From assembly GCA_965203485.1 (NCBI GenBank), contig OZ241892.1, positions 480,001-544,000 on the forward strand: a DNA stretch of 64,000 nt, written 5' to 3'. Below the pieces are notes generated by a model, which saw only the letters and a list, made by a program, of their open reading frames with translations, did not search any database and was not told the origin of the DNA. Positions within the stretch are counted from its first letter, which is position 1, and the number at the start of each line of letters is the position of its first letter. This document shows positions 25,006-41,530 of this stretch, in pieces. This stretch comes from Longimicrobiales bacterium. GTDB lineage: Bacteria > Gemmatimonadota > Gemmatimonadetes > Longimicrobiales > Gaopeijiaceae. The position numbers and the translations under genes are program-made.

Positions 25006-25303
25006 CTATCCGCCCAGTCTCCGCACCGTTTCGAGAAAGACCGAGAAGCTGCGGGAGCGGTTGCCTTCCAGGGCGAGTTCTCTTCCGATCGATCTTGAAC
25101 CCAGCAATTTCTGATGGCGGCCGCCCGTGAGCTTGACGAGTTCCCTCGCGGGTCCAACAAGGCTGTCGGGGTCTCTGTATTTCTTCTTCTTCTCGTACTT
25201 CACAAGCCTGGACAACAATCCCAATCCTCGCTCGACTGCAGCCAAGTCTCCGAAGTACCAACTCTCGAGCGGATCGTTCCTCAAGGAAAAAAACTACGTT
25301 CAC
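25006..25303 (-). pseudogene. DUF4276 family gene, internally deleted and frameshifted
   Basis: N-terminus MNVVFFLEERSARE in one frame abuts LESWYFGDLAA...NRSRSF in another frame; directly downstream of the ATPase. Confidence 0.75.
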
Positions 25304-25306
25304 GGC

Positions 25307-26491
25307 TTATGGATCAATTCCGAAAAACAATCCTTGTCTCCAAATACGTCCCATCTTGTCGCCGTCGTCCATAAACGCCCGAATTTGTTCGTCGTCCCGC
25401 GCTCGTACAATTTTCGTATAGCCATTGAATTTTCGCAAGCAATAAACTTCCTCTAATTGGGCTGCATTTAGAAAATCAGGCGAATGCGTGGATACTAGCA
25501 CTTGTCCACCTCGATTGGCGTACAGTCGAAACTCTTCCGCCAGCTCTTCCAGCAAAGCAGGATAGAGTTGGTTTTCCGGCTCTTCCACGCACAGCATCGG
25601 ATGCGGATCAGGATCATACAGCAAAGTCAGATAAGCCAGCATTTTTATGGTCCCGTCCGATACATGGCGGGCGAGAAACGGTCTCCGAAAAGCCTCATGT
25701 TGAAACCTGAGCAGTATCCTGCCTTCTTCTGTTTGCTTGGCTTCCACTCGTGATACGCCTGGAACGCGGGCTTTCAGGCGCTCGAGTATTTCGTTGAACG
25801 CATCGTGATGATGTTGATGAAGGTATTCCACAACCAACGGAAGATTATCGCCTTCGCGAGACAGGTGCTCCGCGTATCCGGCCTCTCGTTCTCTCCGAGC
25901 CTCGCTGATGTGGAAATCCGATATGTGCCAACGTTCAACCAAGTTGCCGAGCGCGACGACGGCCGGAAAGCGTTCGAACTGCGCCAAGCCCTTGATCGCC
26001 AAGAGGTCTGGAGATTTCAGTTCCTGGTCGTCGCGCTCGAGGTCGTCCGCGCTGGCGACCTCGGAGGCCTCGTTGGTGACGGCGTACCCCTTGCCTCTCT
26101 TGAAGTCGAGGAAATGCCAGGGTTTGCCGTATCGGTAGCGACGATACCGGAGGACCTCGCGGGCCACTACTGGCTTTCCGGCGTCTTCGTCTATCGCCAG
26201 CAAGTAGGTCGCGAGGGGCTCGCTGGGCGTCGGGCGATATTTGATTTCGATTTCGATTGGACCCGTGGCGCCACGACTGCGGACTTCGGAGAAACCGCGA
26301 CTTCCGCCCAGCTTGGAGAGGGCGATCTTGACGTTCGTGGTCATGGCGTCACGAAGGAATCCGAAGACCGACAACAACGTAGACTTCCCCGTGCCGTTCG
26401 CGCCGACGAGGATTGCCAAGCGCGGGAGGTCGCGCAACTTGACGTCCGCGAGGGCGCGAAAGTTCTTGATCCGTATCTGCTCAATGCGCAT
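25307..26491 (-). CDS. ABC-type AAA family ATPase (AAA_21/COG4637-like)
   Basis: IKNFRAL, Walker A GANGTGKS, signature VSDGT, Walker B CVEEPEN, STHSP; 3' half has lower GC. Confidence 0.9.
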   Translation of the reverse strand: MRIEQIRIKNFRALADVKLRDLPRLAILVGANGTGKSTLLSVFGFLRDAMTTNVKIALSKLGGSRGFSEVRSRGATGPIEIEIKYRPTPSEPLATYLLAIDEDAGKPVVAREVLRYRRYRYGKPWHFLDFKRGKGYAVTNEASEVASADDLERDDQELKSPDLLAIKGLAQFERFPAVVALGNLVERWHISDFHISEARREREAGYAEHLSREGDNLPLVVEYLHQHHHDAFNEILERLKARVPGVSRVEAKQTEEGRILLRFQHEAFRRPFLARHVSDGTIKMLAYLTLLYDPDPHPMLCVEEPENQLYPALLEELAEEFRLYANRGGQVLVSTHSPDFLNAAQLEEVYCLRKFNGYTKIVRARDDEQIRAFMDDGDKMGRIWRQGLFFGIDP

Positions 26492-26643: not shown

Positions 26644-29139
26644 CTACAAAATCGAATCCAGGTGGAAGTGCGCGCGCAGGGGCGGGTTGGGCCCGTGGAG
26701 GCTTCGGGCCAAGTCCACGCGGATCAGTCCGTCGAGAAGCGTCAGGCCCGCCCCGGCGCCGTAGTGTGGCCGTGCCGTGCCGAAGTTGCGCGAATCTCCA
26801 GCCCAGCCGCCGTCGAGGAAGACGCCCAGTCCCACGAACTTGAACAACCAAGTCGCTTCGACGCGTCCGCGGGCAAACGCCGGTCCGGTGAGCACGGCGT
26901 CCGGATGCCCCCGGAGCGTCCGCGCCCCGCCCAGATGCCATGCCCGTTGTTGCAGTGCACGGCCCCAGGTCGTGCCTGCGCCGGCCTCCGCGCCCAGCCG
27001 CCACCGTCCCCACCCGGTCGCGAAGAGAGGCAACGCCGTTCGCAGAGTTGCTGAAGCCGCCGCGTAGCCCTCGTGAGCGCCTCCGTTCACAGGCCGCCAT
27101 CTCGCCGCTCGCGCCGTCACTTCCAGCCCGAACTGCGCAACGGACGCTTCGGCGCCCCACCACGGCGAAAAGCGCATTTCGATCCCCAATTCCGCGCCCT
27201 CGTCCACGGCTGGATTGGCAGGGAACGCCCATCCGTCCTCGCCTGCCTTGAACAGGGCGAAGCCCGCTTCGGTGCGCAGCGAACGATGGCGCTCGGCGTA
27301 GCCCCGCAGCAGGACGGATTCGCGGGCGGCGGCGGGCGGGCGCCAAACGAGGCCGAGGCCGGTGGAACGGTAGTACCGGCCCCGGTCGCGCCCCGCGAAG
27401 AAGGCCGCGGCCGAGTTGCCGGCTCCCAGGTAGGCCCCCGCGGGGTCGGTCGCCTGCGTCTCGTCGAACGCCTCCAAGGTGAAGCGGCGCAGCACGGTCA
27501 GGCGCTCGACTTCGATCCGCAGTTGCGGGCGCAGCTCCGCCAGCCCCAGCCTCGCGGCGACGGAGAGGGCGTGCCTTCCGTCGAGTTGCCAAGCTCCCCG
27601 CAATCCGGGGGCCAGCCCTTCGACGCGGTTGTAGCGGAGCATGCCGCGATCGCTCCAAGGCCAGCCCACCGACCAATCCAGCGCGGGCCGGGGCGCCCTC
27701 GGCAACTGGGCCAGGCTTTCCGCGAAGGCGTCCAGCTCGGCTTCGGACAGGAAGGCGGGAGCGTCTTCCCAGATTGGGGGCGGGAGGTGCGGGCTGTCCG
27801 TCAAGCCCGTCCGGTCCTCCGGAACGATGAAGAAGGACTCGCGCCCGCCGGGCGGAGGCGCGTCTGAACGGAGCTGCGCCGCGAACGCTGTCGCCTCGGC
27901 CTCGCTGTCGAACTGAACATCCGGGAAGTCCGCACCGCCCGCTTCGACCATGTCGCTTGCCGTGGTCACGGACTCGATCCGATAGGTCTGCTCGAACGAA
28001 GCGGGGAATCGAAACGAACCCGCGCGGATTTCCGCCTCGAGCCGCATCGTGCGAGGAAGCCACGCCTTGAAGTCCCACAGCGCGTAGTCGACCGCGAGCA
28101 GGCTCAAGTCCATCGTCAAGGGTCTCGCGAAGGGCATGAATCGCAAGGGGCTGTCGCCAAAGCCTTCCTCCGTGTCCCGGGTCACGTCGAGTTGCCGGCT
28201 CAAGCGGTAGACGGCGCGCACCAGGGCCCCCGACTCCGGCTCGATCCACAGCGTGCCCGCGATCCGGTGCGGGTCCGCCCGCAAGGGCAGGACGTGCAGC
28301 TGCACGGCTCGGAGTTCGCGTCCGTCCGGGAATCGCAGGGCAACCGTGTCGCCGCTCTGGTAGCGGTACGATTCGTGGGCGTTCGCGGCCAGCGGATGGG
28401 CGAACCAGAAATCGTCCGCGGCGCCGATCGGGCCCATGTCGCGCAGCTCCGTGCGCTCGCGGCCCTCGGTCTTGGCCAGCCCGAACAAGAGCCGGTCGGC
28501 GCCGGGATCGAACGGGCGACTGAAGGGAAGGTCGTTCAGCCAGCCGCGGTCCTCGGCGGGCTGCACCGTCCCGGTGGGGTCGCGGGAACGCATGCCGAGG
28601 ACCTGGACGATGGGATGCTTGTCCCGCCTCCAGAAGACGCGCAACGCGGTCTCGCTGGCGTACACGGTGCGGTCCTTGAGCGAAAGGCGGACAGCTGCGG
28701 CGAGCCGTTGCTGGACCCGCGCGGCGTAGCTGACGATGGATTCGTCCAACCGGCGCCACTGGGCCGCCGCGGCGTCGTAGAGGTCCCGGGCCGCAGTATC
28801 CACGAAGGCTTCGGCGGGCGGCCGCGCTGGCTGGCGCCGCGAGGCGTCGGCTTGCTGGATCCGCGCGACGGCCGCTTGCGCTGGCGGCGGCCGGCCAACG
28901 ACGAGCGCCAGCGCGGCGAAGACGGCGACGGCGCACGCCGGGTTTGCGCCGCTCGGCAATCCACTCCTCCTCGCAACCTTCCATGGGACGAAGACCCTGC
29001 AGGCCTTGCCGAACAGCGGCACCAGCGACCCGGCGGCGCGCCCGTCCTCAATGACCACGTACTCGTTCCTTCCGGCGGTCCGGCCGATTCTGTCGAGTGG
29101 CAAGCCGTCGGCGCCGCAGCGCCAGTCGCGCGGCCTCAA
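26644..29139 (-). CDS. Hypothetical outer-membrane protein with C-terminal beta-barrel
   Basis: Long host-like ORF; LRYNRVEGL, FLDGGWAG, GAGLTLLDGLIRVDLAR; true start probably nearer 28.95-29.0 kb. Confidence 0.55.
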   Translation of the reverse strand: MRPRDWRCGADGLPLDRIGRTAGRNEYVVIEDGRAAGSLVPLFGKACRVFVPWKVARRSGLPSGANPACAVAVFAALALVVGRPPPAQAAVARIQQADASRRQPARPPAEAFVDTAARDLYDAAAAQWRRLDESIVSYAARVQQRLAAAVRLSLKDRTVYASETALRVFWRRDKHPIVQVLGMRSRDPTGTVQPAEDRGWLNDLPFSRPFDPGADRLLFGLAKTEGRERTELRDMGPIGAADDFWFAHPLAANAHESYRYQSGDTVALRFPDGRELRAVQLHVLPLRADPHRIAGTLWIEPESGALVRAVYRLSRQLDVTRDTEEGFGDSPLRFMPFARPLTMDLSLLAVDYALWDFKAWLPRTMRLEAEIRAGSFRFPASFEQTYRIESVTTASDMVEAGGADFPDVQFDSEAEATAFAAQLRSDAPPPGGRESFFIVPEDRTGLTDSPHLPPPIWEDAPAFLSEAELDAFAESLAQLPRAPRPALDWSVGWPWSDRGMLRYNRVEGLAPGLRGAWQLDGRHALSVAARLGLAELRPQLRIEVERLTVLRRFTLEAFDETQATDPAGAYLGAGNSAAAFFAGRDRGRYYRSTGLGLVWRPPAAARESVLLRGYAERHRSLRTEAGFALFKAGEDGWAFPANPAVDEGAELGIEMRFSPWWGAEASVAQFGLEVTARAARWRPVNGGAHEGYAAASATLRTALPLFATGWGRWRLGAEAGAGTTWGRALQQRAWHLGGARTLRGHPDAVLTGPAFARGRVEATWLFKFVGLGVFLDGGWAGDSRNFGTARPHYGAGAGLTLLDGLIRVDLARSLHGPNPPLRAHFHLDSIL

Positions 29140-32100
29140 GCGCTTGGCTGTTCGCGTGGCGCCGCGCCCTCCGGCCTTCCCGAAGACACCAGCCGAAAGA
29201 TGCTCTCCGCCACCCAGCGCTTGAAGGACTCGTCGTCGGAGAACCGCTTGAAGAACTGCATGTCGTCCTCGATGGTCCCGTTGACGGCGCGCTTCAGCGC
29301 CTTGTCGTGCTCGATCCGCACGTTCTGCCTATCCGATTGCTCCTGGGCGTTGCGAAAGGACTCGTCGCTCTTGACCGCCGCCGGCAGGTCCTCGGTGATC
29401 AGACGGCGAACGCGGTCTTCGTCGCGCCACTGGCCGTCTCCGCCCCAGCGGTCGTTGAACTGCGCGATGATGGCGGACAGCAGGTCGAGTTCCGGTTCGC
29501 GGGCATGGCCTCCTCCGCCCACGGCGGCCGGATCGATTTCTTCTTCGTCCTCGCTCATTTGGATCTCCCGCATGGCCTGCTTCTCGATGCGGTAGCTGTC
29601 CATGTCGATTGCCTCGAGGATGCCGCGCGACAAGTCCTCTTCCTTGGGCGCGGGCAACCTGGGGACCAGGAACTGCAGAAAGATCGACCGCTTCTCCCAG
29701 GGCGCGTACGTCCAGGTCAGGATCGACGACAGGAATCCGTAGGTGCGCAAGAACGTCTTGGCCTTGCCCTTGAAGTCCACCTGGCCGTCCTCGTCCAGCT
29801 CGTTCACGTAGACATTCACGCTCGCGTCGAGGATGGGATCGAGCTGGTCGCGGTCCGCTCCGTCCAGATACAGCTTCACGAACTGGCCCACCACGTCCGG
29901 GTCGTAGACCTGGCGGCCGTCCAGGACGCTCTGCAGGTCGTGGAGCTTGTCCGGGTCGGTTTCGCCCGAGAGAATCGTCGTCCGATAGTACGGCGCGAAC
30001 GCTGCCCTGATCGCGTCCTCGTCGTTCGCGAAGTCCAGCACGGTCACGTCGTGCTTCTTTGGACCGGCCCGGTTCAAGCGCGACAGAGTCTGCACGGCGC
30101 GCACGCCCGACAGCGGCTTGTCCACGTACATCGTGTGAAGCAAAGGCTCGTCGTAGCCCGTCTGGAACTTGTCGGCGCAGACCAGGATGCGGTACGGGTC
30201 GTCGCGAAACTTGTCGGCCGTCCGCGACTCGGGGAATCCGTTCAGCGACGCTTCGGAGACCGTGGCGCCGCCGTGTTCGCGCTCGCCGGAGAACGCCACG
30301 AGCGCCCGGTACGCTCGCTTCCGCTTCGCCAAGTAGGATCGGATGGCGTCGTAGTACTGGATGGCTCGCTGAACATTGCTCGTCACCACCATCGCCCTGG
30401 CCCGGCCGCCGATCTTGCGTTGCGCCACGACTTGATTGTGAAAGTGGTCGGCCATGATCTCGGCCTTCAAGCGGATTGCGTGGTCGTGGCCCTCCACGTA
30501 GCGTCGCAACTTCTTCGTCGCTCGCTTGGCGTCGAAGACCGGATCGTCCTCCACCCTCTTGGCCAGCCGGTAGTAGCTGCGGATCGGCATGTAGCGCTGC
30601 ACCACGTCCAGGATGAAGCCCTCCTCCACGGCCTGCTTCATGGTGTAGGAATGGAAGGGCCTGCGCTTGGTTTCGCCGTCGGCGCCGCGCTCCAGACCGT
30701 CCGGCCGCGGCACAGGGGTCCCGAAGAGCTCCAGCGTCTTGTTCTTGGGCGTGGCCGTGAAGGCGAAGTAGCTGGCGTTGGACAGCATCCGGCGGGATTC
30801 GACGATGCGGTTGATCCGGTCTTCGAGCGTGTCGCCCTCGTCGGCGCCGGCATCGTCCTCGTTCAAGGCGCCGTCCGCGCCGCCGTCCGCGTCCTCGCCA
30901 GCGGTTCCGCCCTCGGCGTCGTCGTCGCCCTCGGTAGCATCGTCTCTTGCGCTCCCCGCCCCCGACAGCGCTTGCGACATGGCCCCCGACTGCCGGCCCC
31001 CCTGGCTGGAGTGCGCCTCGTCGATGACGACGGCAAAGGTGCGGCCGCCGGCCTGTGCCCGAATCTCGTCCAGGATGAACGGAAATTTCTGAACCGTGGA
31101 GATGACGATCTTCTTGCCGCCCTCGATGAACCGGCGCAGGTCGCCGGATCGGCGGGCGTGGCCGACGGTCGCTCCCACTTGGGCGAATTGCTTGATCGTG
31201 TCGCGGATCTGCCGGTCCAGAATGCGCCGGTCGGTGACGACGACCACCGAATCGAAGACCGGCTTGCCGTGCCTAGCCAAGCCGATCAGCTGGTGGGTCA
31301 GCCAAGCGATCGAGTTGGACTTGCCGCTGCCCGCCGAGTGCTGGATCAGATAGCGCCGCCCCGCGCCGTGCCGACGAGCGTCGTCCAGCAGCTTGCGCAC
31401 CACGTCCAGCTGATGGTACCGGGGCCAGACCTGCGTCTTGCGCTGGCGTCCTGTTTCGGGGTCCCTCGTCGCCAGCATCTGCGCGTAGTTCTCGATGATG
31501 CCGGCCACGCTGTCGCGGGACAGCACGTCCTCCCACAGATACGCCGTGGAAAGCCCGGCCGGGTTCGGCGGATTGCCTGCGCCGTCGCGATGCCCCCGGT
31601 CGAACGGCAGAAACCACGAGTCCTTGCCCCGCAAGTGCGTGCAGAACCGCACGCGATGCTCGTCCACCGCGAAGTGGGCCGCGCACCGCCCCAGCTCGAA
31701 CAGCCTCTCGCGCGGACTTCGGTCGCGCACGTACTGGCGCACCGCGTCGTCCACCGTCTGCTTGGTCAGCCGGTTCTTGAGCTCGAAGGTGGCGATGGGC
31801 AACCCGTTGACGAACAGCGCCAAGTCCAGCGCCAGCCCCGCTTGGTCCTTGCTGTAGCGCAGTTGCCGCGTAACGGTGAAGCGGTTCGCGTCGTAGCGCA
31901 TCCTGGCCGCTCTGTTGCCCGGAGAAGGCGTGCCGTAGTAGAGGCCGACCTCGTGCCGCCCGTGCTGGATGCCGCGACGAAGCACTGCGATCGTGCCGTG
32001 CGTGCTGATCTGCCCTTGGAGGCGGGCCAGAAACTTGCGACGGACGGGGCCGTCTTCGTGCAACGCCAGGGCCTCGGCCGTGTCGGGCTGGGTGACGGAC

Positions 32101-32375
32101 AGGAAGCCCGCGAGCTGGGCGATATCCACGCAGTGCTCGCGGTCGTAGTCGCGGGGGTCGCCGCAGAGCCAGCCGGAGCCCCGGCGGGATTGGCCGTTGG
32201 GCGCGCCGGCCTCGTAAGCAGACCGAGGCTCCCCCGCCCGGAAAGGGGATGCGCGGCCGTTGCTGGGTGCGTTGCCGGCGCCGTCGTTGCCGCCAGCTTC
32301 CGGATCGCAGGGCGAGCCCGTCATGGCGGCGCAGATCAGCCGTTCAAGGCCGCGTTCGGTGGTGTCGGTGGGCAA
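29136..32375 (-). CDS. hsdR: Type I restriction endonuclease subunit R
   Basis: DLALFVNGLPIATFELK nuclease motif, QHSAGSGKS, DEAH, FTATP, QTLSRLNR. Confidence 0.95.
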   Translation of the reverse strand: MPTDTTERGLERLICAAMTGSPCDPEAGGNDGAGNAPSNGRASPFRAGEPRSAYEAGAPNGQSRRGSGWLCGDPRDYDREHCVDIAQLAGFLSVTQPDTAEALALHEDGPVRRKFLARLQGQISTHGTIAVLRRGIQHGRHEVGLYYGTPSPGNRAARMRYDANRFTVTRQLRYSKDQAGLALDLALFVNGLPIATFELKNRLTKQTVDDAVRQYVRDRSPRERLFELGRCAAHFAVDEHRVRFCTHLRGKDSWFLPFDRGHRDGAGNPPNPAGLSTAYLWEDVLSRDSVAGIIENYAQMLATRDPETGRQRKTQVWPRYHQLDVVRKLLDDARRHGAGRRYLIQHSAGSGKSNSIAWLTHQLIGLARHGKPVFDSVVVVTDRRILDRQIRDTIKQFAQVGATVGHARRSGDLRRFIEGGKKIVISTVQKFPFILDEIRAQAGGRTFAVVIDEAHSSQGGRQSGAMSQALSGAGSARDDATEGDDDAEGGTAGEDADGGADGALNEDDAGADEGDTLEDRINRIVESRRMLSNASYFAFTATPKNKTLELFGTPVPRPDGLERGADGETKRRPFHSYTMKQAVEEGFILDVVQRYMPIRSYYRLAKRVEDDPVFDAKRATKKLRRYVEGHDHAIRLKAEIMADHFHNQVVAQRKIGGRARAMVVTSNVQRAIQYYDAIRSYLAKRKRAYRALVAFSGEREHGGATVSEASLNGFPESRTADKFRDDPYRILVCADKFQTGYDEPLLHTMYVDKPLSGVRAVQTLSRLNRAGPKKHDVTVLDFANDEDAIRAAFAPYYRTTILSGETDPDKLHDLQSVLDGRQVYDPDVVGQFVKLYLDGADRDQLDPILDASVNVYVNELDEDGQVDFKGKAKTFLRTYGFLSSILTWTYAPWEKRSIFLQFLVPRLPAPKEEDLSRGILEAIDMDSYRIEKQAMREIQMSEDEEEIDPAAVGGGGHAREPELDLLSAIIAQFNDRWGGDGQWRDEDRVRRLITEDLPAAVKSDESFRNAQEQSDRQNVRIEHDKALKRAVNGTIEDDMQFFKRFSDDESFKRWVAESIFRLVSSGRPEGAAPREQPSA

Positions 32376-32571: not shown

Positions 32572-33735
32572 TCAGGAAGCCGTCCTCGCGTGCGCCAGCA
32601 GTTCCTGCCCGCTCGCGCAGTCGATGACGAGATCGGCGACCTCGGCGAGCCGCTCTGAAGCGGAGACCTCCTCCAACAGCGCGCCAAGCTCCTTTGCCGT
32701 CTCCGCGTCGAACTTCCGTCGCGCCAAGCGCACCAGGGTCGCCCGGCGCTCGAGCAGAGCACGCGCTTCGGCTTCCTGGCGACCTTCCTGCCGGCCTTCC
32801 TCGCGGACTTCCCGGCGAACCTCCTCGCGGACTTCCTCGCGAACCTCCTGGCAAACCTCCTCGCGGACCTCCTGGCGGACCTCCTCGCGGACCTCCCGGC
32901 GGTTCTTCTCGCGGTCCTCCGCCAACCAAATCTGTGCGACCCCGCCCGTCAGGTCGCCCATCTGCTTCACCTTTGCCACGTCCTCCTCCTTTGCTCCTTG
33001 GTCGATCATCAAACTTCGCACCCACGCCACCAGCCCCTCGCGCGCCGCGCTGTCGCGGGGCAGCAACGCCCTCAACACCGGCAACGCCTCCTCAACCTCG
33101 GCGCTGTTCGCCGCGTAGCGCAACTTCAGCGCCGCCTCGCGCGCCGTCGTCCCGCGCTCGATCTCCCGCGCCTCTTGCGCCTCCGACACGAGCACGAACT
33201 GGTGGCCGAGCGCGAACGGAAGGAACGCCTTCGCCTCGTCGGCCAGCAGATCCTCGAGCCGCGCCGGCGCCGTCCACCGCTCCGGCCCGACGTGCACGAC
33301 GATGGGCAGCACGGGCGGCAACCCGCGCGTCCGGCTCGCCTCTTGGCTCTTGGCCAGGTAGTCGTAGGCCAGGGCCGTCTCGAGCAAGATGCGCACGGCC
33401 ATTCGCCAGTCCGACGCCGCCTGGAACTCGAAAAGCAAGACGACGTAGAGCCACGAGTCGCGAAACGGCGCCCGCCACACGAGGTCGGCGTGGCGCGACG
33501 TGCGCAACTTGGGATCGACGTGCTCGGTCGGCGCCGGCTGGAGACCCTCGAGGTCGATGCGGTCGGCGACGCTGGCGGGGACGACCTTGCCGAAGACGTG
33601 CTTGGCCAGAAACTCGGCGACGATCCGCTTCTCGCGGTAGACGAGCTTGGCGCTCTTGTCCAGCGGCTGGTGGGCAGGCGGTTCGTCGTCCGGCTCGGGG
33701 TCGAGACGGCGGTCTCGGGGGCTGATGGGCGTCAT
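32572..33735 (-). CDS. Rpn family (YhgA-like) PD-(D/E)XK nuclease / putative transposase
   Basis: D..AK, ADLVWR, LFEFQ, MAVRI, LPPVLPIVV, EGRQEGRQE coiled tail, LARRKF. Confidence 0.85.
   Translation of the reverse strand: MTPISPRDRRLDPEPDDEPPAHQPLDKSAKLVYREKRIVAEFLAKHVFGKVVPASVADRIDLEGLQPAPTEHVDPKLRTSRHADLVWRAPFRDSWLYVVLLFEFQAASDWRMAVRILLETALAYDYLAKSQEASRTRGLPPVLPIVVHVGPERWTAPARLEDLLADEAKAFLPFALGHQFVLVSEAQEAREIERGTTAREAALKLRYAANSAEVEEALPVLRALLPRDSAAREGLVAWVRSLMIDQGAKEEDVAKVKQMGDLTGGVAQIWLAEDREKNRREVREEVRQEVREEVCQEVREEVREEVRREVREEGRQEGRQEAEARALLERRATLVRLARRKFDAETAKELGALLEEVSASERLAEVADLVIDCASGQELLAHARTAS
32773..32901. repeat. In-frame 12-bp imperfect tandem repeat (about 10 units; EEVR/QEVR/EEGR)
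   Basis: cctcgcggactt/cctcgcggacct-type units are visible; protein REVREEVRQEVREEVCQEVREEVREEVRREVREEGRQEGRQE. Confidence 0.85.
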
Positions 33736-34189
33736 GGACGTTGCGCCGGGGACGTGAACAAGGGCGGGCGCGCCCCCGGCCAGGCGGCGCTGGCCACGGA
33801 TTCGCCGTGCAAGGCTTCCGGAAGAAGCGTGCCATAAGACGGTCGCTGTCCGACGCCAGAATGCAAATGGCGGAATGGGACCCGTTGCATGTCCAAATGG
33901 GTCGATGACGGAAACGCCTCCGGCCAAGCGGTCGCCGATCGGCTTCATCCGGGGCTCGATGCGGGTTGCGAGGCGCGACGGGGCGAACCTGGTTCCTGGA
34001 AGGCTGAATGGTCGCGCCCGGCCGGACGCCCGCAGCTTTGACGGATGCCGGTTGCGGCTTTAAGCTTGCTGGTCCATGCGGTCCGCCCTCCCAGGCGGGG
34101 CGAACGAAATTCTGGACGTGTCGATTCGATTGCGATGCCAACGAAGCCGTCGTGGATCACCCAATCATCCAACGGGGCCTGGAACCAAT

Positions 34190-34954
34190 ATGATTGACGA
34201 AGTTCAACGCCTCGTGGACCAATACTGGAACTGGTTGCAGGAGCAGACGACAATCCGGGAGGTCGGAGACCACGTCGAGATCACGACTCCCTACCTGGAC
34301 CGCCACAACGACTGCTTCCAGATGTATGCTCGCCGACGCGAAGATGGATTCATCCTTACGGACGACGGCTACGTGCTCAACGACTTGGCGCAGGCCGGCG
34401 TCGACGCAACCAGCGGCAAGCGCGGATTGTTGCTGGAGGAAACGCTCAACGGCTTCGGGGTCCGGGAAGTCGCGGGTGCGTTGCAAGTGGAGGCGTCGCC
34501 CGAAGACTTCGGCCTGCGAAAGCACAACCTCCTTCAGGCCATGCTCGCTGTTTCCGACATGTTCTACTTGGCGTCGCCGACGGTCGAAAGCCTGTTTCAC
34601 GAAGACGTGATTGCGTGGCTCGACACGTCCAGCATCAGATACACGCCGAACGTCAAGCTCTCCGGCAAGAGCGGCTTCGACCACAAGTTCGACTTCGTCA
34701 TTCCGAAATCGCCGGATCAGCCCGAGCGAGTGTGCAGGTCCATCAACCGTCCCGACCGCAACGCGGCGCAAACCATGGTCTTCGCGTGGGAGGACACCAA
34801 GGAAGCTCGCGACCCCAACACTGTAGCCTACGCCATCCTAAACGACGCGGATCGGTCCGTATCACGGTTTGTCGACAAGGCACTCGAAAGTTACGATGTG
34901 CGGCCGGTCCGCTGGTCGACCCGCGAGGAAGCGATAAAGAAGCTAGCGGCATAG
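34190..34954 (+). CDS. DUF1828/DUF1829 domain protein
   Basis: EITTPYLDRHND, LTDDGY, KHNLLQAM, GKSGFDHKFDFVIP. Confidence 0.85.
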   Translation: MIDEVQRLVDQYWNWLQEQTTIREVGDHVEITTPYLDRHNDCFQMYARRREDGFILTDDGYVLNDLAQAGVDATSGKRGLLLEETLNGFGVREVAGALQVEASPEDFGLRKHNLLQAMLAVSDMFYLASPTVESLFHEDVIAWLDTSSIRYTPNVKLSGKSGFDHKFDFVIPKSPDQPERVCRSINRPDRNAAQTMVFAWEDTKEARDPNTVAYAILNDADRSVSRFVDKALESYDVRPVRWSTREEAIKKLAA

Positions 34955-35092: not shown

Positions 35093-36679
35093 TCACGCCG
35101 CGGTCTCTATGTTCGTGCCGGCGATCCCTCGGACGTCCACCTTGCCGGTCACCACGTCGGAGATCAAGCGGGTTCGGTACTCGCGGAGCAGCTCCATTTC
35201 CCGGCGTGCGAGTTCTGCCGCTCTGTCGATCTTGGCGGTTTCGCGGTCGAGGAACGCACCGATGGCCTCCTGTTCTTGCCGTAACGGAAGAGGTATGACC
35301 AAGTGCTTCAGTCCGCTAGCGTAGATGTGCATTACCGTCACTCCACGTCCCATACAGGATTTCTGCCAGGAAGCATGTGCACAATCAAGCGCGTATCCAC
35401 TGAACACGGGATTCAATGCGCCAAAATTTGGTCGAAAGACTATGACATCTCCACTGCAACATGTATGTTCGCGGAGGAGAGTTGTGACTGATTTGCCAAT
35501 GTCGTCGAGCGTTTCGCCTGATCCGGCGAAGAGTACATCTCCATACAAAACTTGCGTGTAGCCCTCGCTCACCTGTTCCGATACAAATCCGAAAGGTGTC
35601 CTGACATGACGGTCGTACATCGTGTAAATGTCTCCGTAGCGTATGCATGGAACACCCGTCGTCGATCTGTCGTTGCGTGTGCCACCTGAGCCTTTGAAGA
35701 AGTCCCCGAACGTCCCGAGTGGTTTGACTTCCCAATGCTCCGGCACGTCCCCCAGCCACTCCACTCCGCTCGGCTTGAGTTTCGGATGCGGATCGAATCC
35801 GGCCTTGCGCGCCTCGTCGGGCGGAAGTCCGCGTGTCACGGTCCGGCTGACGAGGACGGTGCGGTGTTCATCGAGTCTCTCGACCAGAATCTCCTTTTGG
35901 CGAATCAAGGCGTCGATCTTGGCGGTTTCGCGGTCGAGATAGAGGACTATTGCACACGACTCGGAAGGAGTGGGCAAGGGTAATCGCAAGTTGCCAATCC
36001 AGTTCCAACTGGCTCTTGGCATTCTAGCACCAGAAGTGCGCAGGTTTACGTTGTCGATAAAACCGGGGGTCAGCAACGCATACAGGAGATAGCTTGCATA
36101 ACTCGAAGGATTTCTTTCCCTAAGAACAATAAACTCGGATGAACACAAGCCGTCAGCATCAGGACGGCATGCCTTGGCCAAGTAGGGGCGCAACTTGCCA
36201 AACAGAATGTCACCAGCGAGGAATGGAGCAAATGACGAGTTTCGATCTGCCGAGTGAGGGACAGGCGTCTCGAGTAGCCTACCGGTCCACGACTCAACCG
36301 AGTCCATGCCTACATGCAGAGGCTTGCCGATCGAGTCCTCAACATCGTGCTTGTTGTCAATCCTTGACAATACGCGCTGTAGTGGTTTGACCTCCCAATG
36401 CTCCGGCACGTCCCCCAGCCACTCCACTCCGCTCGGCTTGTACTTCGGATACGGCATGAGGTCCAATGCGCGGGCTGCCCCGTTCTCCGATTGCAGGGTC
36501 TTCGGCGATTTCACCTCGGACATCAGTCGACGCAATGTCGGGTCCGTGTATTCTTGGGACAGACGCCACTGTTGAATGTCGTCGGCCGTCATGTGTTCAA
36601 GCTCTTTGCCGATGCGGTCTCGGATCTCGCGCAGGTGCTTGACGTGGGTGAAGGGCCGATCGTCGGCGGAATCAGTCAT
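35093..36679 (-). CDS. hsdS: Type I specificity subunit HsdS with an N-terminal 74-aa antitoxin-like extension
   Basis: Two KPSGVEWLGDVPEHWEVKPL and two LDRETAKID conserved blocks, two low-GC TRDs, EYRTRLISDVVTGKVDVR end; HsdS proper begins near M at 36457. Confidence 0.93.
   Translation of the reverse strand: MTDSADDRPFTHVKHLREIRDRIGKELEHMTADDIQQWRLSQEYTDPTLRRLMSEVKSPKTLQSENGAARALDLMPYPKYKPSGVEWLGDVPEHWEVKPLQRVLSRIDNKHDVEDSIGKPLHVGMDSVESWTGRLLETPVPHSADRNSSFAPFLAGDILFGKLRPYLAKACRPDADGLCSSEFIVLRERNPSSYASYLLYALLTPGFIDNVNLRTSGARMPRASWNWIGNLRLPLPTPSESCAIVLYLDRETAKIDALIRQKEILVERLDEHRTVLVSRTVTRGLPPDEARKAGFDPHPKLKPSGVEWLGDVPEHWEVKPLGTFGDFFKGSGGTRNDRSTTGVPCIRYGDIYTMYDRHVRTPFGFVSEQVSEGYTQVLYGDVLFAGSGETLDDIGKSVTTLLREHTCCSGDVIVFRPNFGALNPVFSGYALDCAHASWQKSCMGRGVTVMHIYASGLKHLVIPLPLRQEQEAIGAFLDRETAKIDRAAELARREMELLREYRTRLISDVVTGKVDVRGIAGTNIETAA
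35718..35777. repeat. 60-bp direct repeat preceding TRD2 of hsdS
   Basis: 59/60 identical to 36381-36440. Confidence 0.9.
36381..36440. repeat. 60-bp direct repeat preceding TRD1 of hsdS
   Basis: 59/60 identical to 35718-35777. Confidence 0.9.
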
Positions 36680-36890
36680 CGGGCTCTGCCGACTGCCTTG
36701 AACGTGTAGGCGACTTTGGCTTGGCTCTGGACATCAGGCGGCGTAGTTTCGGGTTCTTGTATTCTCGAGACTGGTGCCACCGATAGGCCTCCTCGGCCGT
36801 CATGTGTTCGAGCTCCTTGTTGATGCGATCTCTGATTTCGCGGAGGTGCTTGACGTAGCTGAAGGACTTCTTGTCCGTAGGTTCAGTCAT
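36672..36890 (-). CDS. Small helical protein, putative antitoxin of the upstream PIN domain
   Basis: 72 aa; F..VK.LREIRDRI.KELEHMT pattern resembles small proteins found downstream of this PIN class; 8-bp ATGACTGA overlaps at both ends. Confidence 0.75.
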   Translation of the reverse strand: MTEPTDKKSFSYVKHLREIRDRINKELEHMTAEEAYRWHQSREYKNPKLRRLMSRAKPKSPTRSRQSAEPDD

Positions 36891-39333
36891 GGTGCTCGAT
36901 CTCCCGTGGTGAGCGGATGTCGATGGATTGGTGTTCCCGGACGACGTTGACGGAGTTGCATATCTGGATTCGCCGGGCGTTCACGATGTGCTTGAAGTTC
37001 CAGCTGACCAAGACGTCGGCCTCGGCGAGCGTGGCCAGCGCGATGTGCTCGGCGTCGGCCTGCATCGACGGCGCCAGGGCGCCCGCGTCAATATAGGCCA
37101 GGGCAAGGCGTTCCGCGTCTTCCGACGCCTGGACCTCCTCTATGTGCGCGTCCGGGACCTGCTCCAGGACGTCTTGGACCTCCTGTCTTGCGCCTTCGAG
37201 TTCCGTGGCGGTTAGGTGCGACAGAAGCAGAACGTGCTCTCCCCGACCGAAGGCCTTGAACAGACGGCATGAGGGCTCCCGGAACTCTTCGTCGAAGCAC
37301 CCGCCCACGACGGTGGTGTCCACGTAGACCCGCAATCGCGCCCCGTAGGGCATCGGCCGGGGCTCGGCCACGAGCGCCGCCAGCAGGGCGTTGGACTTTC
37401 GGCGCACCGAACGGATGTCGGCTCGGATCGCGCGCAACGGCCGCATCGGCTTCGGCTTGTAGAAGTGGCGCGCGAAGTTGATCTCGTAGCCGGTCTTCAC
37501 CGAGTTGGGACGGTGCCAGGCGTCCGGCGCGTAGGGCAGGACCTCCCGGCGGAGAAAGGCATCCACGCCGCCCTCCTCCGTCAAGGGAACCCGCTCGGTG
37601 TCGCGAAGGTCGGGGTCCGGCTCGTACTCGACGACGGCGGGCGTTCCGTCCACCTGCGCCTCGAACCGGCCCACGAGCGCGTCGGCATCGACGCCCGTCT
37701 TCCACGCCCGCCGAATCACGGGCGCCGCCTCCGGGTCCCGCTCGCCGTCCTCCTTCAGGCGCTTGATCTCCGCCGCCTTGTAGACGCGCCCGGGCTCGGC
37801 CCCGGCGATCCGCAACGGCCGCTCGACCGTCGCCTTCGCGTATCCGAAGGCGTCGTTCGGGAAGATCTTCGACTCGTCCGTCTCCTCGAACGCCAGGAAG
37901 ACGTCGCACACGCGCTGGGCGTCCTCGTCCGACAGCTCGCAGTTCTTCTTGCCCAAGTTCTTGCGCAACGGCGTGAACCACCGGGTCGCGTCGATCAGCT
38001 GGACCCGGCCGACGCGATGTTCGGGCTTGCGGTTGGTCAGGACCCAGACGTACGTGGCGATGCCCGTGTTGTAGAACATGTTCAGGGGCAGCGCGACGAT
38101 CGCCTCGAGCCAGTCGTTCTCGATCATCCAACGGCGGATGTTGCTCTCGCCCTGGCCCGCGTCGCCGGCGAACAGCGAGCTGCCGTTGTGGACCTCGGCG
38201 ATGCGGCTGCCCAAAGTCGTGCTCTGCTTCATCTTGCTCAGCATGTTGGCCAGGAACAGCATCTGGCCGTCGCTGACGCGGGTCGCCAGCGAGAACTCCG
38301 GGTCGCGGCCGTGCTCGACCACGAACCGGGGATCGCGCATGTCGCGCTTGCCGCCCATGCGCTGCAAGTCGCTCTTCCAGCTCTTGCCGTAGGGCGGGTT
38401 CGACAGCATGAAGTCGAACTCCTTGTCGGGGAACGCGTCGTTGGACAAGGTCGAGTGCTCGGGGCCGCCCACGATGTTGTCGGCCGCTTCGCCTTCGCCC
38501 TTCAGCAGCAGGTCGGCCTTGCAGATCGCATAGGTCTCGGCGTTGATCTCCTGGCCGTACAGATGCGTGGCCACCTTCTTGCCGCGCTCCTCGGCCAGCG
38601 CCTGCAACGTCTGCTCGGCCACGGTCAGCATGCCGCCGGTGCCGCACGCGCCGTCGTAGAGCAGATACGTGCCGTTCGCGATCTCGTCGGCCACCGGCAG
38701 GAACACGAGCTTGGCCATCAGCTTCACGGCGTCGCGCGGCGTCCAGTGCTCGCCGGCCTCCTCGTTGTTCTCCTCGTTGAAGCGCCGGACCAGCTCCTCG
38801 AAGATCGTGCCCATGCCGTGGTTGTCGAGGCCGGGATGCCGCACCGTTCCGTCGGGCTTGAGCACGGGCTCCGGTCCCAGGTTCACGTCGGGCGACGTCA
38901 GCTTCTCGATCAGCGAGCCCAGCGCGTCCGCCCTGGACAGGCGCGGAACCTGGTTGCGGAACTCGAAGTTGTCGATGATCTCCTGGACGTTGGGCGAGAA
39001 GCCGTCCAAGTACGCCTCGAAGTCGGCCCGCAGCCGTTGCTGGCTGGCCCGCGCCTTCAGGTCCTGCATCGTGAAGGGCGACGCGTTCCAGAACGCTTGG
39101 CCCGCCGCCGCGCGCAGTCCGCCGTCCTGGTTCGCGACGCCGGCCTCGTCCAGCATGGCTTTCCGCTCCCGCACGGGCTGCTTGGTCGGCTCCAGCACCG
39201 CGTCCAGCCGGCGCAGGACGGTCATCGGCAGGATCACGTCGCGATACTTGCCGCGCACGTACAGGTCCCGCAGCACGTCGTCGGCGATGCCCCAGATGTA
39301 GTTCGCGATCCAGGCCAGCTGAGCATGATCCAT
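36883..39333 (-). CDS. hsdM: Type I m6A methyltransferase HsdM fused to a C-terminal PIN (VapC-like) domain
   Basis: GEHWTPRD, YDGACGTGGML, NPPY, FYNTGIATY, GYEINF..HFY; then RVYVDTTVVGGCFDEEF...ADAEHIALA...LVSWNFKHIVN...IRSPRE with no stop in between. Confidence 0.93.
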   Translation of the reverse strand: MDHAQLAWIANYIWGIADDVLRDLYVRGKYRDVILPMTVLRRLDAVLEPTKQPVRERKAMLDEAGVANQDGGLRAAAGQAFWNASPFTMQDLKARASQQRLRADFEAYLDGFSPNVQEIIDNFEFRNQVPRLSRADALGSLIEKLTSPDVNLGPEPVLKPDGTVRHPGLDNHGMGTIFEELVRRFNEENNEEAGEHWTPRDAVKLMAKLVFLPVADEIANGTYLLYDGACGTGGMLTVAEQTLQALAEERGKKVATHLYGQEINAETYAICKADLLLKGEGEAADNIVGGPEHSTLSNDAFPDKEFDFMLSNPPYGKSWKSDLQRMGGKRDMRDPRFVVEHGRDPEFSLATRVSDGQMLFLANMLSKMKQSTTLGSRIAEVHNGSSLFAGDAGQGESNIRRWMIENDWLEAIVALPLNMFYNTGIATYVWVLTNRKPEHRVGRVQLIDATRWFTPLRKNLGKKNCELSDEDAQRVCDVFLAFEETDESKIFPNDAFGYAKATVERPLRIAGAEPGRVYKAAEIKRLKEDGERDPEAAPVIRRAWKTGVDADALVGRFEAQVDGTPAVVEYEPDPDLRDTERVPLTEEGGVDAFLRREVLPYAPDAWHRPNSVKTGYEINFARHFYKPKPMRPLRAIRADIRSVRRKSNALLAALVAEPRPMPYGARLRVYVDTTVVGGCFDEEFREPSCRLFKAFGRGEHVLLLSHLTATELEGARQEVQDVLEQVPDAHIEEVQASEDAERLALAYIDAGALAPSMQADAEHIALATLAEADVLVSWNFKHIVNARRIQICNSVNVVREHQSIDIRSPREIEHHD

Positions 39334-39383: not shown

Positions 39384-40088
39384 CTACGCCGGCGCGCCCC
39401 CAACGCCAACCCGGTCGATTCCGTGGCGGTCGGACGGGGATTTGCGAGTCCGCATCTCCGACGCTAGTTCCTGCTCCAGCCTTCGTTGTTCCTTCGTTGC
39501 GTCCGCTTCCGCCACGATGCCGGCCCCCACATACGCCCGTACCGCTTCCGCCACCGATTCCACCTGAACGACGCGCGTGAGCTCGTCATCTCGCGCCGAT
39601 CGCCAGTGAAGCGCCACGCCGACGTCAGGCGCCACTTGCAACTCTGGCCTGCCCAACGGGTCTTCTTTCTTGAGCGTCGTCAGTAGCACGGCAGCCCCTC
39701 GCCACACTTCCACGAACCGGTCCCGCTCCTCCCTGCCCGGCATTTTGCCGCGTGGCTCGCGCTGGATTTCAGCGTGGGCTGGGTTCTCCGGTATAGGTCG
39801 GTCCGTGACGCTCCAAAGCCGGTGTCCTTCCGCATCGGTCAGCATGCGGATTTCTGCCGTCCTGGCCTTGATCGTGCCCCGCATGCCGCGACCGCCCATG
39901 ACTGCTTGCACATGGTGACTCCGGTCGACCGACGCACCGCCTTCCTCTTTGGTCCACCGGAGCGCTCTACGCGGAAACGCAGATCGAGGGACAGCTCCGC
40001 TACCCGTCTCTCGCGCTCCAGGGGGTAGCCGTCTCTCCAGTTCTTCGTTGTCATCAACCACCCCAAGCGCGTGTGCTCCCGGGCTCAT
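39384..40088 (-). CDS. Hypothetical protein, possible ADP-ribosyltransferase/RES-like fold
   Basis: E.L.RR, AF, ASVD and PENPAHAEI in the order expected for ART-like folds; by eye only. Confidence 0.5.
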   Translation of the reverse strand: MSPGAHALGVVDDNEELERRLPPGARETGSGAVPRSAFPRRALRWTKEEGGASVDRSHHVQAVMGGRGMRGTIKARTAEIRMLTDAEGHRLWSVTDRPIPENPAHAEIQREPRGKMPGREERDRFVEVWRGAAVLLTTLKKEDPLGRPELQVAPDVGVALHWRSARDDELTRVVQVESVAEAVRAYVGAGIVAEADATKEQRRLEQELASEMRTRKSPSDRHGIDRVGVGGAPA

Positions 40089-40127
40089 TCCCTCAGCCGG
40101 AAACTTCTCCCCTCGCTTGACCAGGTC

Positions 40128-40688
40128 TCAGACCTCCCCGTGCATCTCTTCCAGCCAAGACATGACCCGATCAAGTTCTTCTCGGCTGTGTTCCACAAAG
40201 CGTCCCTCCTCGCTCTCTTCGCTCAGTGTGCGGCTGATGTAATAGCCGACGGTGCCGTTTTCTTCCGTGCCGATCTCGACCCTGCCGTATCCACTCCGCC
40301 AGATGATGCAGATCTCCCACGCCTCGTCGGCGTAGACCTCGTCGGGTTGCTTCCATGCGTCACGCAACCCCAGCAACGCAGCGATGCGATTCCTGTTGAT
40401 CTCAATCTGCGGCATGATCCCTCCCTTGACTTGGGCCGCTCGCAAGGTGTCGGCGTCGATTGTGTCCAGGATCTCTCGCGTCGTCTTGGCTTCCTGTCCG
40501 CTACCACTCGTGTCAATTCCTCCAAGACCTTTCTCATCTATCTGCCATGTAGTGGCATTTCCAAGTGCTACGGTAGTGTCTTCTTCCTGTCTGGGCGGTG
40601 ACAAACGACTTGATCCTCGCCTTGCTACGTAGCGTCCGTGTCTCAATCCCACGTCGGGTACTGATGCGATCATCCCGGCCGTGGTCAT
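40128..40688 (-). CDS. Hypothetical protein, middle gene of the TIGR04255-like triad
   Basis: 186-aa ORF with ATGA overlap to the upstream gene; C-terminal I.W...GRVEIG...GTVGYY beta-rich part. Confidence 0.6.
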   Translation of the reverse strand: MTTAGMIASVPDVGLRHGRYVARRGSSRLSPPRQEEDTTVALGNATTWQIDEKGLGGIDTSGSGQEAKTTREILDTIDADTLRAAQVKGGIMPQIEINRNRIAALLGLRDAWKQPDEVYADEAWEICIIWRSGYGRVEIGTEENGTVGYYISRTLSEESEEGRFVEHSREELDRVMSWLEEMHGEV

Positions 40689-41530
40689 ATCTGCCCTCCC
40701 GGTTGATTCATTCCGATCCGCTTGGCGATGTCTTCGGTGACCAGGTTCCCGAACAATGCATGGATGCGTCGATGCAGTTTGTCGTATACAGCTCGGCCGT
40801 TGCTCTCGCTCTCATCGACAGAATGAATTTTCCCGAACGCCCTGTCGAGCCTCAGGCGCGCTGTTGTTTCTCGAAATCCCCAGATCGCGGTTGTCTCCAC
40901 CTTGACGATCGGACGGACCTTCTGTCCCTCCGCACGCAGTTCTGCCCCTATCTGAAACCGCTCCAGGATACGTTGCCCGTCGGGATCTTCAATCCACCCT
41001 TCCCCTATGTGCCACATCTTCGAATTCCCGGCTTTCGACGGTATCCGTTCTTCCCGGACTGCGAGCTTTGGATCGTAGGTGGCATCAGGGCCGTGCCAGA
41101 CGAACATGTCTTGGTAGGTGAGCCCAGCACTGCAAACCTGTGCGAGCGGATGGTCGTTCCCAAGAACCTTTCCTACGCTGGCAAACAGCTCGTAGGCCTT
41201 TTCGCTCACGCTCTTCCATCCCCCGTACTGAGCGCATCCGATTGTGATTGTCGGCCCGGCGACCTCCATCCACCACGCGGCCTGGCCCGTGCGCTTGAAT
41301 TCAACGTACTGCGTGGGCGCCAGCGGCTTTGGCCTGTCGTCCACAAGGGGCGTCGGGCCCACCGCGATCTCCATCACATGGCCACGCCTCACCGTCGGCA
41401 GCACGGCCTTCCAGTAGTTCTCGTAGCCTTCGTCCAGCTTCGCTCGCTCGTGCTCCGTCATCTCGCCACTTCCGGTGAGGCGGAAAATCACGGCCTCGAT
41501 GGCGTGATCTCGGTGCAACGGCTCAAACAT
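40685..41530 (-). CDS. TIGR04255-like protein
   Basis: HAIEAVIFRL, QYGGWKSV, AGLTYQDMF, LH......FGNLVTEDI...IG pattern. Confidence 0.65.
   Translation of the reverse strand: MFEPLHRDHAIEAVIFRLTGSGEMTEHERAKLDEGYENYWKAVLPTVRRGHVMEIAVGPTPLVDDRPKPLAPTQYVEFKRTGQAAWWMEVAGPTITIGCAQYGGWKSVSEKAYELFASVGKVLGNDHPLAQVCSAGLTYQDMFVWHGPDATYDPKLAVREERIPSKAGNSKMWHIGEGWIEDPDGQRILERFQIGAELRAEGQKVRPIVKVETTAIWGFRETTARLRLDRAFGKIHSVDESESNGRAVYDKLHRRIHALFGNLVTEDIAKRIGMNQPGGQI

Follow-up and report, generated by a model that had tools for sequence, protein, structure and literature searches.

In the 64,000-nucleotide stretch of Longimicrobiales DNA analysed here (the window), the methylase gene of a type I restriction locus continues in frame into a VapC-type PIN domain, and we propose that this tail may act as a back-up kill switch built into the restriction system. 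Toxins encoded inside type I loci are already known, and what is new here is that the PIN domain is covalently part of HsdM. Residues 1-660 of the product are HsdM (Pfam N6_Mtase, 1e-49, and HsdM_N, 4e-20; PADLOC MTase_I, 7e-231), and in the ORF running from 39333 to 36883 the HsdM tail (FYKPKPMRPL..IRADI..LL) passes into the last 156 amino acids without an intervening stop, and unfused HsdM relatives stop at about residue 656, right past the C-terminal helix. A reading of this DNA from its letters alone (the sequence-only reading) had described these tail motifs and the single uninterrupted frame, all of which are present on the minus strand. The type I set here consists of hsdM, hsdS and hsdR, with the methylase, nuclease and helicase sequence motifs all intact (Table 1).

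Table 1. The hsdM-PIN locus and its neighbours, in window positions
Feature	Positions	Strand	Remarks
hsdM-PIN fused ORF, 816 aa (P0002)	36883..39333	-	44 fused clusters; junction bridged by contigs
HsdM core, residues 1-660	37354..39333	-	motif I (YDGACGTGG) at 226 and NPPY at 312 intact
HsdM C-terminal segment and helix, residues 624-654	37372..37464	-	end point of unfused relatives
Linker VAEPRP, residues 655-660, before Met661	37354..37371	-	
VapC-type PIN domain, residues 661-816	36883..37353	-	from conservation, family scans and model
PIN residues D672, E711, D760, N779	37320, 37203, 37056, 36999		extra conserved acids D681 and E683
72-aa partner gene (P0003), putative inhibitor, overlaps PIN stop	36672..36890	-	clear SD
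Second partner copy, first ~70 residues of HsdS	36464..36679	-	54% identical to P0003 over 68 aa
hsdS, 528 aa (P0004)	35093..36679	-	two target-recognition domains
DUF1828/DUF1829 gene	34076..34954	+	PADLOC PDC-M24B, 1.5e-99; inverted cargo within operon
Rpn/YhgA-like gene	32572..33948	-	cargo between hsdS and hsdR
hsdR	29136..32375	-	nuclease (D..ExK) and helicase motifs intact

The identity of the tail as a PIN domain, proposed in the sequence-only reading, is borne out by family scans, fold and conservation together. In a PIN-clan HMM search of residues 661-816, the window's own tail matched Pfam PIN_3 below the cut-off (E 0.012, 16.8 bits against a cut-off of 27), whereas its aligned relatives, at E<=0.01, matched PIN (PF01850) in 54 of 74 cases and PIN_3 (PF13470) in 31 of 74. 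The predicted model (pLDDT 89.4) adopts the alpha/beta/alpha PIN fold and matches VapC structures, and in it one acid of the triad lies where strand 7-11 ends and the other two lie in helices 46-52 and 95-109. The D/E/D residues that had been thought present are conserved across the fused sequences (D672 in 43/44, E711 in 44/44 and D760 in 42/44). The fourth active-site position is Asn (S-W-N779), not Asp, in 44/44 fused sequences; in Asn-type VapCs a Glu at +3 replaces the missing Asp, whereas the +3 residue here is His782, and D681 (44/44) and E683 (43/44) might substitute for the missing fourth acid. By pairwise Nei-Gojobori estimates, in which the pairs are not independent, dN/dS of the fused PIN was 0.07-0.23 in 10 of the 11 pairs, the most distant pair giving 0.34, compared with 0.14-0.28 for HsdM. 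On the strength of the modelled fold, the tail is predicted to be a VapC-type metal-dependent ribonuclease; the 74 PIN family members gave no consistent PADLOC or NCBIfam match, and our literature search found no member of the PIN or partner family with a tested function.

The junction is spanned without gaps by contigs from three of four sequencing runs, with 0 other letters across it in X4 (record 13, from the study that probably also supplied this DNA), 35 in X5 (record 21, marine metagenome) and 42 in X8 (record 27, sponge metagenome), and the pieces listed for run X11 included no bridging contig. The records with the window's DNA are labelled marine or sponge metagenome or bear a code. 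Among the 49 longer PIN homologues returned, 44 carry N6_Mtase, 41 of these at full length (808-890 aa), and the PIN identity of the fused homologues ranges from 46 to 100%. Because contigs of three of the four runs bridge the junction and 44 of 49 longer homologues are fused, the fusion is not an assembly artefact.

The 72-aa ORF that overlaps the PIN stop (36890-36672), and the second copy of it with which the next ORF, hsdS, begins, carry most of the mechanism proposed below and were absent from the sequence-only reading. Free-standing PIN relatives from many phyla are likewise followed by an ORF of 45-75 aa that aligns with the 72-aa partner (consensus FDxVxxMRxIRDxLS). The partner profile was found behind 78/78 free-standing PINs, a count that is largely circular, behind 14/17 further PIN loci, some of them maybe near copies of training loci, and in 11/11 fused loci versus 0/72 unfused hsdM loci, and the upstream ORFs of 73 free-standing loci were heterogeneous, with no common gene. 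No consistent Pfam family was found among 81 partner members, with a FitA-like RHH match in 2/81 only, and the partner matched unnamed Atlas clusters (0.90-0.92). Tandem partner copies occur in 4/11 fused loci (two copies in G000, four in G001, three plus a broken one in G641, and two plus a PIN-partner fusion in G777) and in 1/78 free-standing loci, and some natural proteins join PIN and partner in one chain (P0087, probability 98%; P0045; P0100). From this invariant linkage, the partner probably binds and silences the PIN, which would suggest what the many small, unnamed family members behind uncharacterised Asn-type PINs in many phyla probably do.

The partner domain stands at the start of 13 HsdS proteins with differing recognition domains (12 besides P0004; 11 whole and 2 partial), and for 7 of the 12 further ones the longest contig is as long as that of a fused HsdM, an indirect tie. 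This second fusion is local and dispensable, because none of the 10 other fused DNA loci has it, close relatives alone showing it, and because it carries a 2-base insertion in run X5. As a separate observation, some HsdS alleles (P0072; L001 7297-8754) have two identical recognition domains and would read a symmetric site.

A one-frame junction was found in one of 60 relatives (G001), in 6 further genomes of 400 in the window's own phylum, and in 3 of 401 genomes from the phylum to which G441, with its acidobacterial locus (L004), belongs; these counts are not independent, because the compared genomes are kin. The nearest named locus (L001), from Longimicrobiales, which we take to belong to Gemmatimonadota, has a PIN 80% identical and is not counted apart, and one fused protein comes from a Gammaproteobacteria MAG. 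The fusion was not found in plasmids, in viral contigs, or in two additional genome sets, one of 301 and one of 401 genomes. The fused loci have the hsdM..hsdS context in 11/11 cases, with hsdR within the fetched DNA in 9/11. In a quick tree, a single branch (SH-aLRT 88) adjoining free-standing pairs unites 46/46 fused PINs with the divergent split copy of G290, and in the HsdM tree the fused label requires at least 6 changes. PIN domains of 55%, 58% and 59% identity sit on HsdM cores that are 95%, 93% and 93% identical (P0041/P0267, G777/G641 and P0033/P0043, respectively). HsdM alleles 95-96% identical to fused ones lack the PIN (P0264, P0265, P0278), and 70 of 80 metagenome HsdM relatives are complete and unfused; therefore, the methylase does not need the PIN. 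In unfused loci, varied and unrelated cargo genes follow hsdM, coupled to it through stop-start overlap. Further states are split (G290, G440), deleted with a partner remnant (G007), and duplicated (G777 and the P0080 group, the latter with partner, HsdM tail helix and PIN), and in G157 the PIN and partner are kept behind a 5′-truncated hsdM. Therefore, the trees, the PIN swaps on near-identical HsdM and the varied states point, at the level of sequence, to one capture followed by recombinational exchange, loss and duplication.

Several neighbouring arrangements were also observed. In G157 (L219 12153-14956), an integrase and relaxase-like element interrupts hsdM and leaves PIN and partner intact. 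A 903-aa protein (P0054) has HsdM joined at the same linker to the C-terminal half of HsdS, and L181 has an 887-aa HsdM-HsdS fusion. In a 428-aa protein (P0156), the same PIN family follows an HNH-like domain, a second fusion context or a read-through.

By analogy with known systems, we propose that the fused PIN may be a tethered back-up toxin forming a second line of restriction defence, a reading to which we give a probability of roughly 45%. A free-living pair, with the PIN first and a helical partner of 45-75 aa overlapping its stop, behaves like a toxin-first toxin-antitoxin system, and the sequence shows that such a pair entered the cargo position after hsdM in one type I family, where the PIN was joined in frame to the end of HsdM. 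VapCs act as dimers. The two HsdM C-terminal helices and the conserved helices of HsdS form a four-helix bundle in type I enzymes, as described in PMC10050889, and, by analogy, the HsdM helix 624-654 would have this HsdS-binding role here; since the PIN lies six residues past this helix, HsdS would bring two PINs together. In each M2S1 or R2M2S1 complex, two PINs would then lie side by side at the HsdS helices, near the partner copy with which HsdS begins in this clade. Upon host shut-off, which would stop the partner supply, or when an anti-restriction protein disturbs the complex, the PIN pair would be freed to cut tRNA, rRNA or mRNA and the infected cell would be arrested, as with PrrC and Ronin. 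Near-identical hsdM alleles have swapped PIN-partner cassettes, and the purpose of this exchange might be like that of HsdS target-recognition domains. A further elaboration, which we consider unlikely, is that the inhibitor comes in two forms, a free protein and the HsdS N-terminus, so that M2S assembly would gate a built-in, exchangeable RNase toxin. If true, this would be a self-guarding restriction system, in which anti-restriction binding, HsdS loss or a specificity swap would trigger cell arrest and PIN-partner cassettes would diversify like specificity domains.

Several observations weigh against the tethered toxin. The fourth acid is Asn with His782 at +3, and D681/E683 are putative stand-ins; near-identical HsdM alleles lack the PIN, and most metagenome relatives are unfused; the partner-HsdS fusion was found in 13 proteins, all from close relatives. 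Control of the PIN by the restriction complex remains putative, because G157 retains the pair after a 5′-truncated hsdM and free-standing pairs commonly occur where no restriction system is present.

The same G157 state would be expected if the pair were a selfish passenger, an ordinary toxin-antitoxin addiction module in a crowded cargo site, without cross-talk with restriction, in which the fusion is a tolerated accident using the hsdM promoter and start, the module stabilises the island and stays intact because loss of the partner is lethal. This alternative, which we hold to be rather unlikely though ahead of the others, also accommodates the many unrelated stop-start-coupled cargo genes behind hsdM, the coexistence of fused, split, deleted, duplicated and HsdM-half-HsdS (P0054) states, and the in-frame stops in 6 of 79 free-standing PINs, as expected of decaying toxin-antitoxin toxins. 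However, addiction alone would favour keeping the antitoxin rather than an unimpaired toxin, and yet the fused PIN has dN/dS of 0.07-0.23; moreover, the frame is kept in 44 clusters, down to 46% PIN identity, in two phyla and through PIN swaps. Passenger and tethered toxin explain the plasticity equally, but the conserved active site and frame are explained less well by the passenger.

It is improbable that the PIN is a structural enhancer resembling PcrIIC1 of Cas9, with dimerisation as its main role, so as to clamp together two HsdM subunits or complexes and alter the efficiency of methylation or restriction, the partner tuning the effect. PcrIIC1 of type II-C CRISPR-Cas9 (8wmm) is, like the PIN here, a PIN-fold accessory on the C-terminal helix of a DNA-targeting defence enzyme; in contrast to the covalent HsdM-PIN, it is a non-covalent Cas9 partner described as an enhancer, with 12% identity and with no small partner gene named in the available parts of the reports (PMC12669027, PMC13153721). 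The acidic triad is, moreover, equally conserved in fused and free-standing copies, and free-standing copies have no adjoining defence enzyme, type I genes lying beside only 1 of 78 (L053).

It is very improbable that the long frame is incidental and that the active form is a 17 kDa PIN made on its own from Met661 or released by linker proteolysis. An in-frame ATG does exist at 37353, some Met occurs no more than 14 residues from the PIN in 28 of the 57 distinct linkers, and two fused loci (G281, G395) have an ATG at the first strand of the PIN; the same codon, however, is CTG in G117 and ACG in G179, close relatives, a pattern that, from the codons, looks like a decaying former start. Of the 44 fused sequences, 9 have Met at the Met661 column. 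At the DNA level, 6 of the 10 other fused loci lack any ATG within 14 codons before the PIN, the G518 linker has no ATG, GTG or TTG in those codons, and across the 44 clusters no stop is fixed ahead of the PIN. The sequence-only reading had argued for a true fusion from the missing SD at Met661, and here the observation holds but the argument is weak, because the hsdM start scores no better against the anti-SD (-2.3 kcal/mol at Met661, -2.6 at hsdM, -7.1 at the partner gene); SD strength is thus non-discriminating in this genome, and the fusion stands on the bridging contigs, the sparse conservation of Met661 and the linkers without start codons. A pattern [VAR]xE[PS]..Y/F is found in 33 of 57 distinct linkers and is possibly a binding or cleavage signal; by eye, a similar [VAR]xE[PS]..Y pattern lies near HsdR N-termini (GEPRSAY here, GEPTPGY in G157). 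Least probable of all is that the PIN acts in cis on the invader (phage transcripts, R-loops or cut ends instead of host RNA), as its covalent tether to a DNA-scanning enzyme and its intact active site would allow, since the fold is VapC-like and not FEN-like among the matches listed, the partner is kept exactly as in free-standing pairs, and HsdR is intact, so that no nuclease needs replacing.

The tethered toxin resembles several known systems in part. PIN genes co-transcribed with type I subunits, mostly in unconserved arrangements, have been reported, and that study states that toxin-antitoxin and restriction systems had not been demonstrated to interact directly (Matelska et al., 2017, PMC5499597, Fig. 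S7). As here, those operons contain a PIN toxin, and sometimes an antitoxin, and a link was proposed; the genes there are separate, whereas here the PIN lies within HsdM, in two phyla and with a fixed downstream partner. The available text names no fusion, and the examined part of its Table S1 has no N6_Mtase or COG0286 entry. Our literature search, in which subscription journals are sparsely covered, found no paper on an HsdM-PIN fusion.

Type I proteins restrain PrrC and RonA until anti-restriction proteins release them, according to PMC12707154 and bioRxiv 10.1101/2023.04.06.535777. PrrC of EcoPrrI (type IC) and RonA, which acts with HsdMS in Ronin, are like the PIN here encoded in a type I locus, but each is a molecule of its own, PrrC an anticodon nuclease and RonA a membrane peptide, and neither is fused to HsdM; the available parts of these reports name no dedicated small inhibitor gene for them, whereas a partner gene is present here, and the trigger here is putative. 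No homology to PrrC or RonA was found with PADLOC/NCBIfam across 74 members, the effector being a PIN domain. The VapBC systems compared (Shigella VapC, 5ed0/3tnd; M. tuberculosis, 7vwo; NTHi VapC1, PMC4229260) share 12-20% identity with the PIN here and likewise comprise two overlapping genes, a toxin and a small partner, inherited together. However, their antitoxin lies upstream of vapC and is of RHH, AbrB, HTH or Phd type, whereas here the partner lies downstream and hsdM upstream, the toxin is fused to the methylase, and the partner has no consistent VapB/Pfam match. A covalent HsdM-PIN with a likely inhibitor beside the PIN and on HsdS would be a natural Rosetta-stone case for the link between toxin-antitoxin and restriction systems, and the HsdM C-terminus is a second exchangeable module of type I enzymes besides the HsdS recognition domains.

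The surroundings of the locus hold further genes of possible interest. The DUF1828/DUF1829 gene sits head-to-head with hsdS, and a distant relative lies between hsdS and hsdR in G518 (L244); the Rpn/YhgA-like gene (32572-33948, minus strand) contains a run of EVREEV-type tetrapeptide repeats. Related loci carry small toxin-antitoxin-like pairs, presumably DUF433/PIN_10-like, and DUF262-like genes between hsdS and hsdR or before hsdS (L219 6199-6752, L220 7062-7615, L224 6805-8268). Directly upstream of hsdM, a three-gene block of lower GC (39384-41530, minus strand), possibly another conflict module, comprises a TIGR04255-family gene (40685-41530; E 1e-5, below cut-off) and ORFs of 186 and 234 aa without family. 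In the genome G000 (contig C1), another, unrelated type I system that lacks a PIN lies about 35 kb from an array of 17 tRNA genes (2694800-2696932 and 2658372-2661405). An AAA ATPase on low-GC DNA at 25006-26491 (minus strand), which matches PADLOC HEC-01B (1e-189) and has a small gene downstream, is a second defence system of the island.
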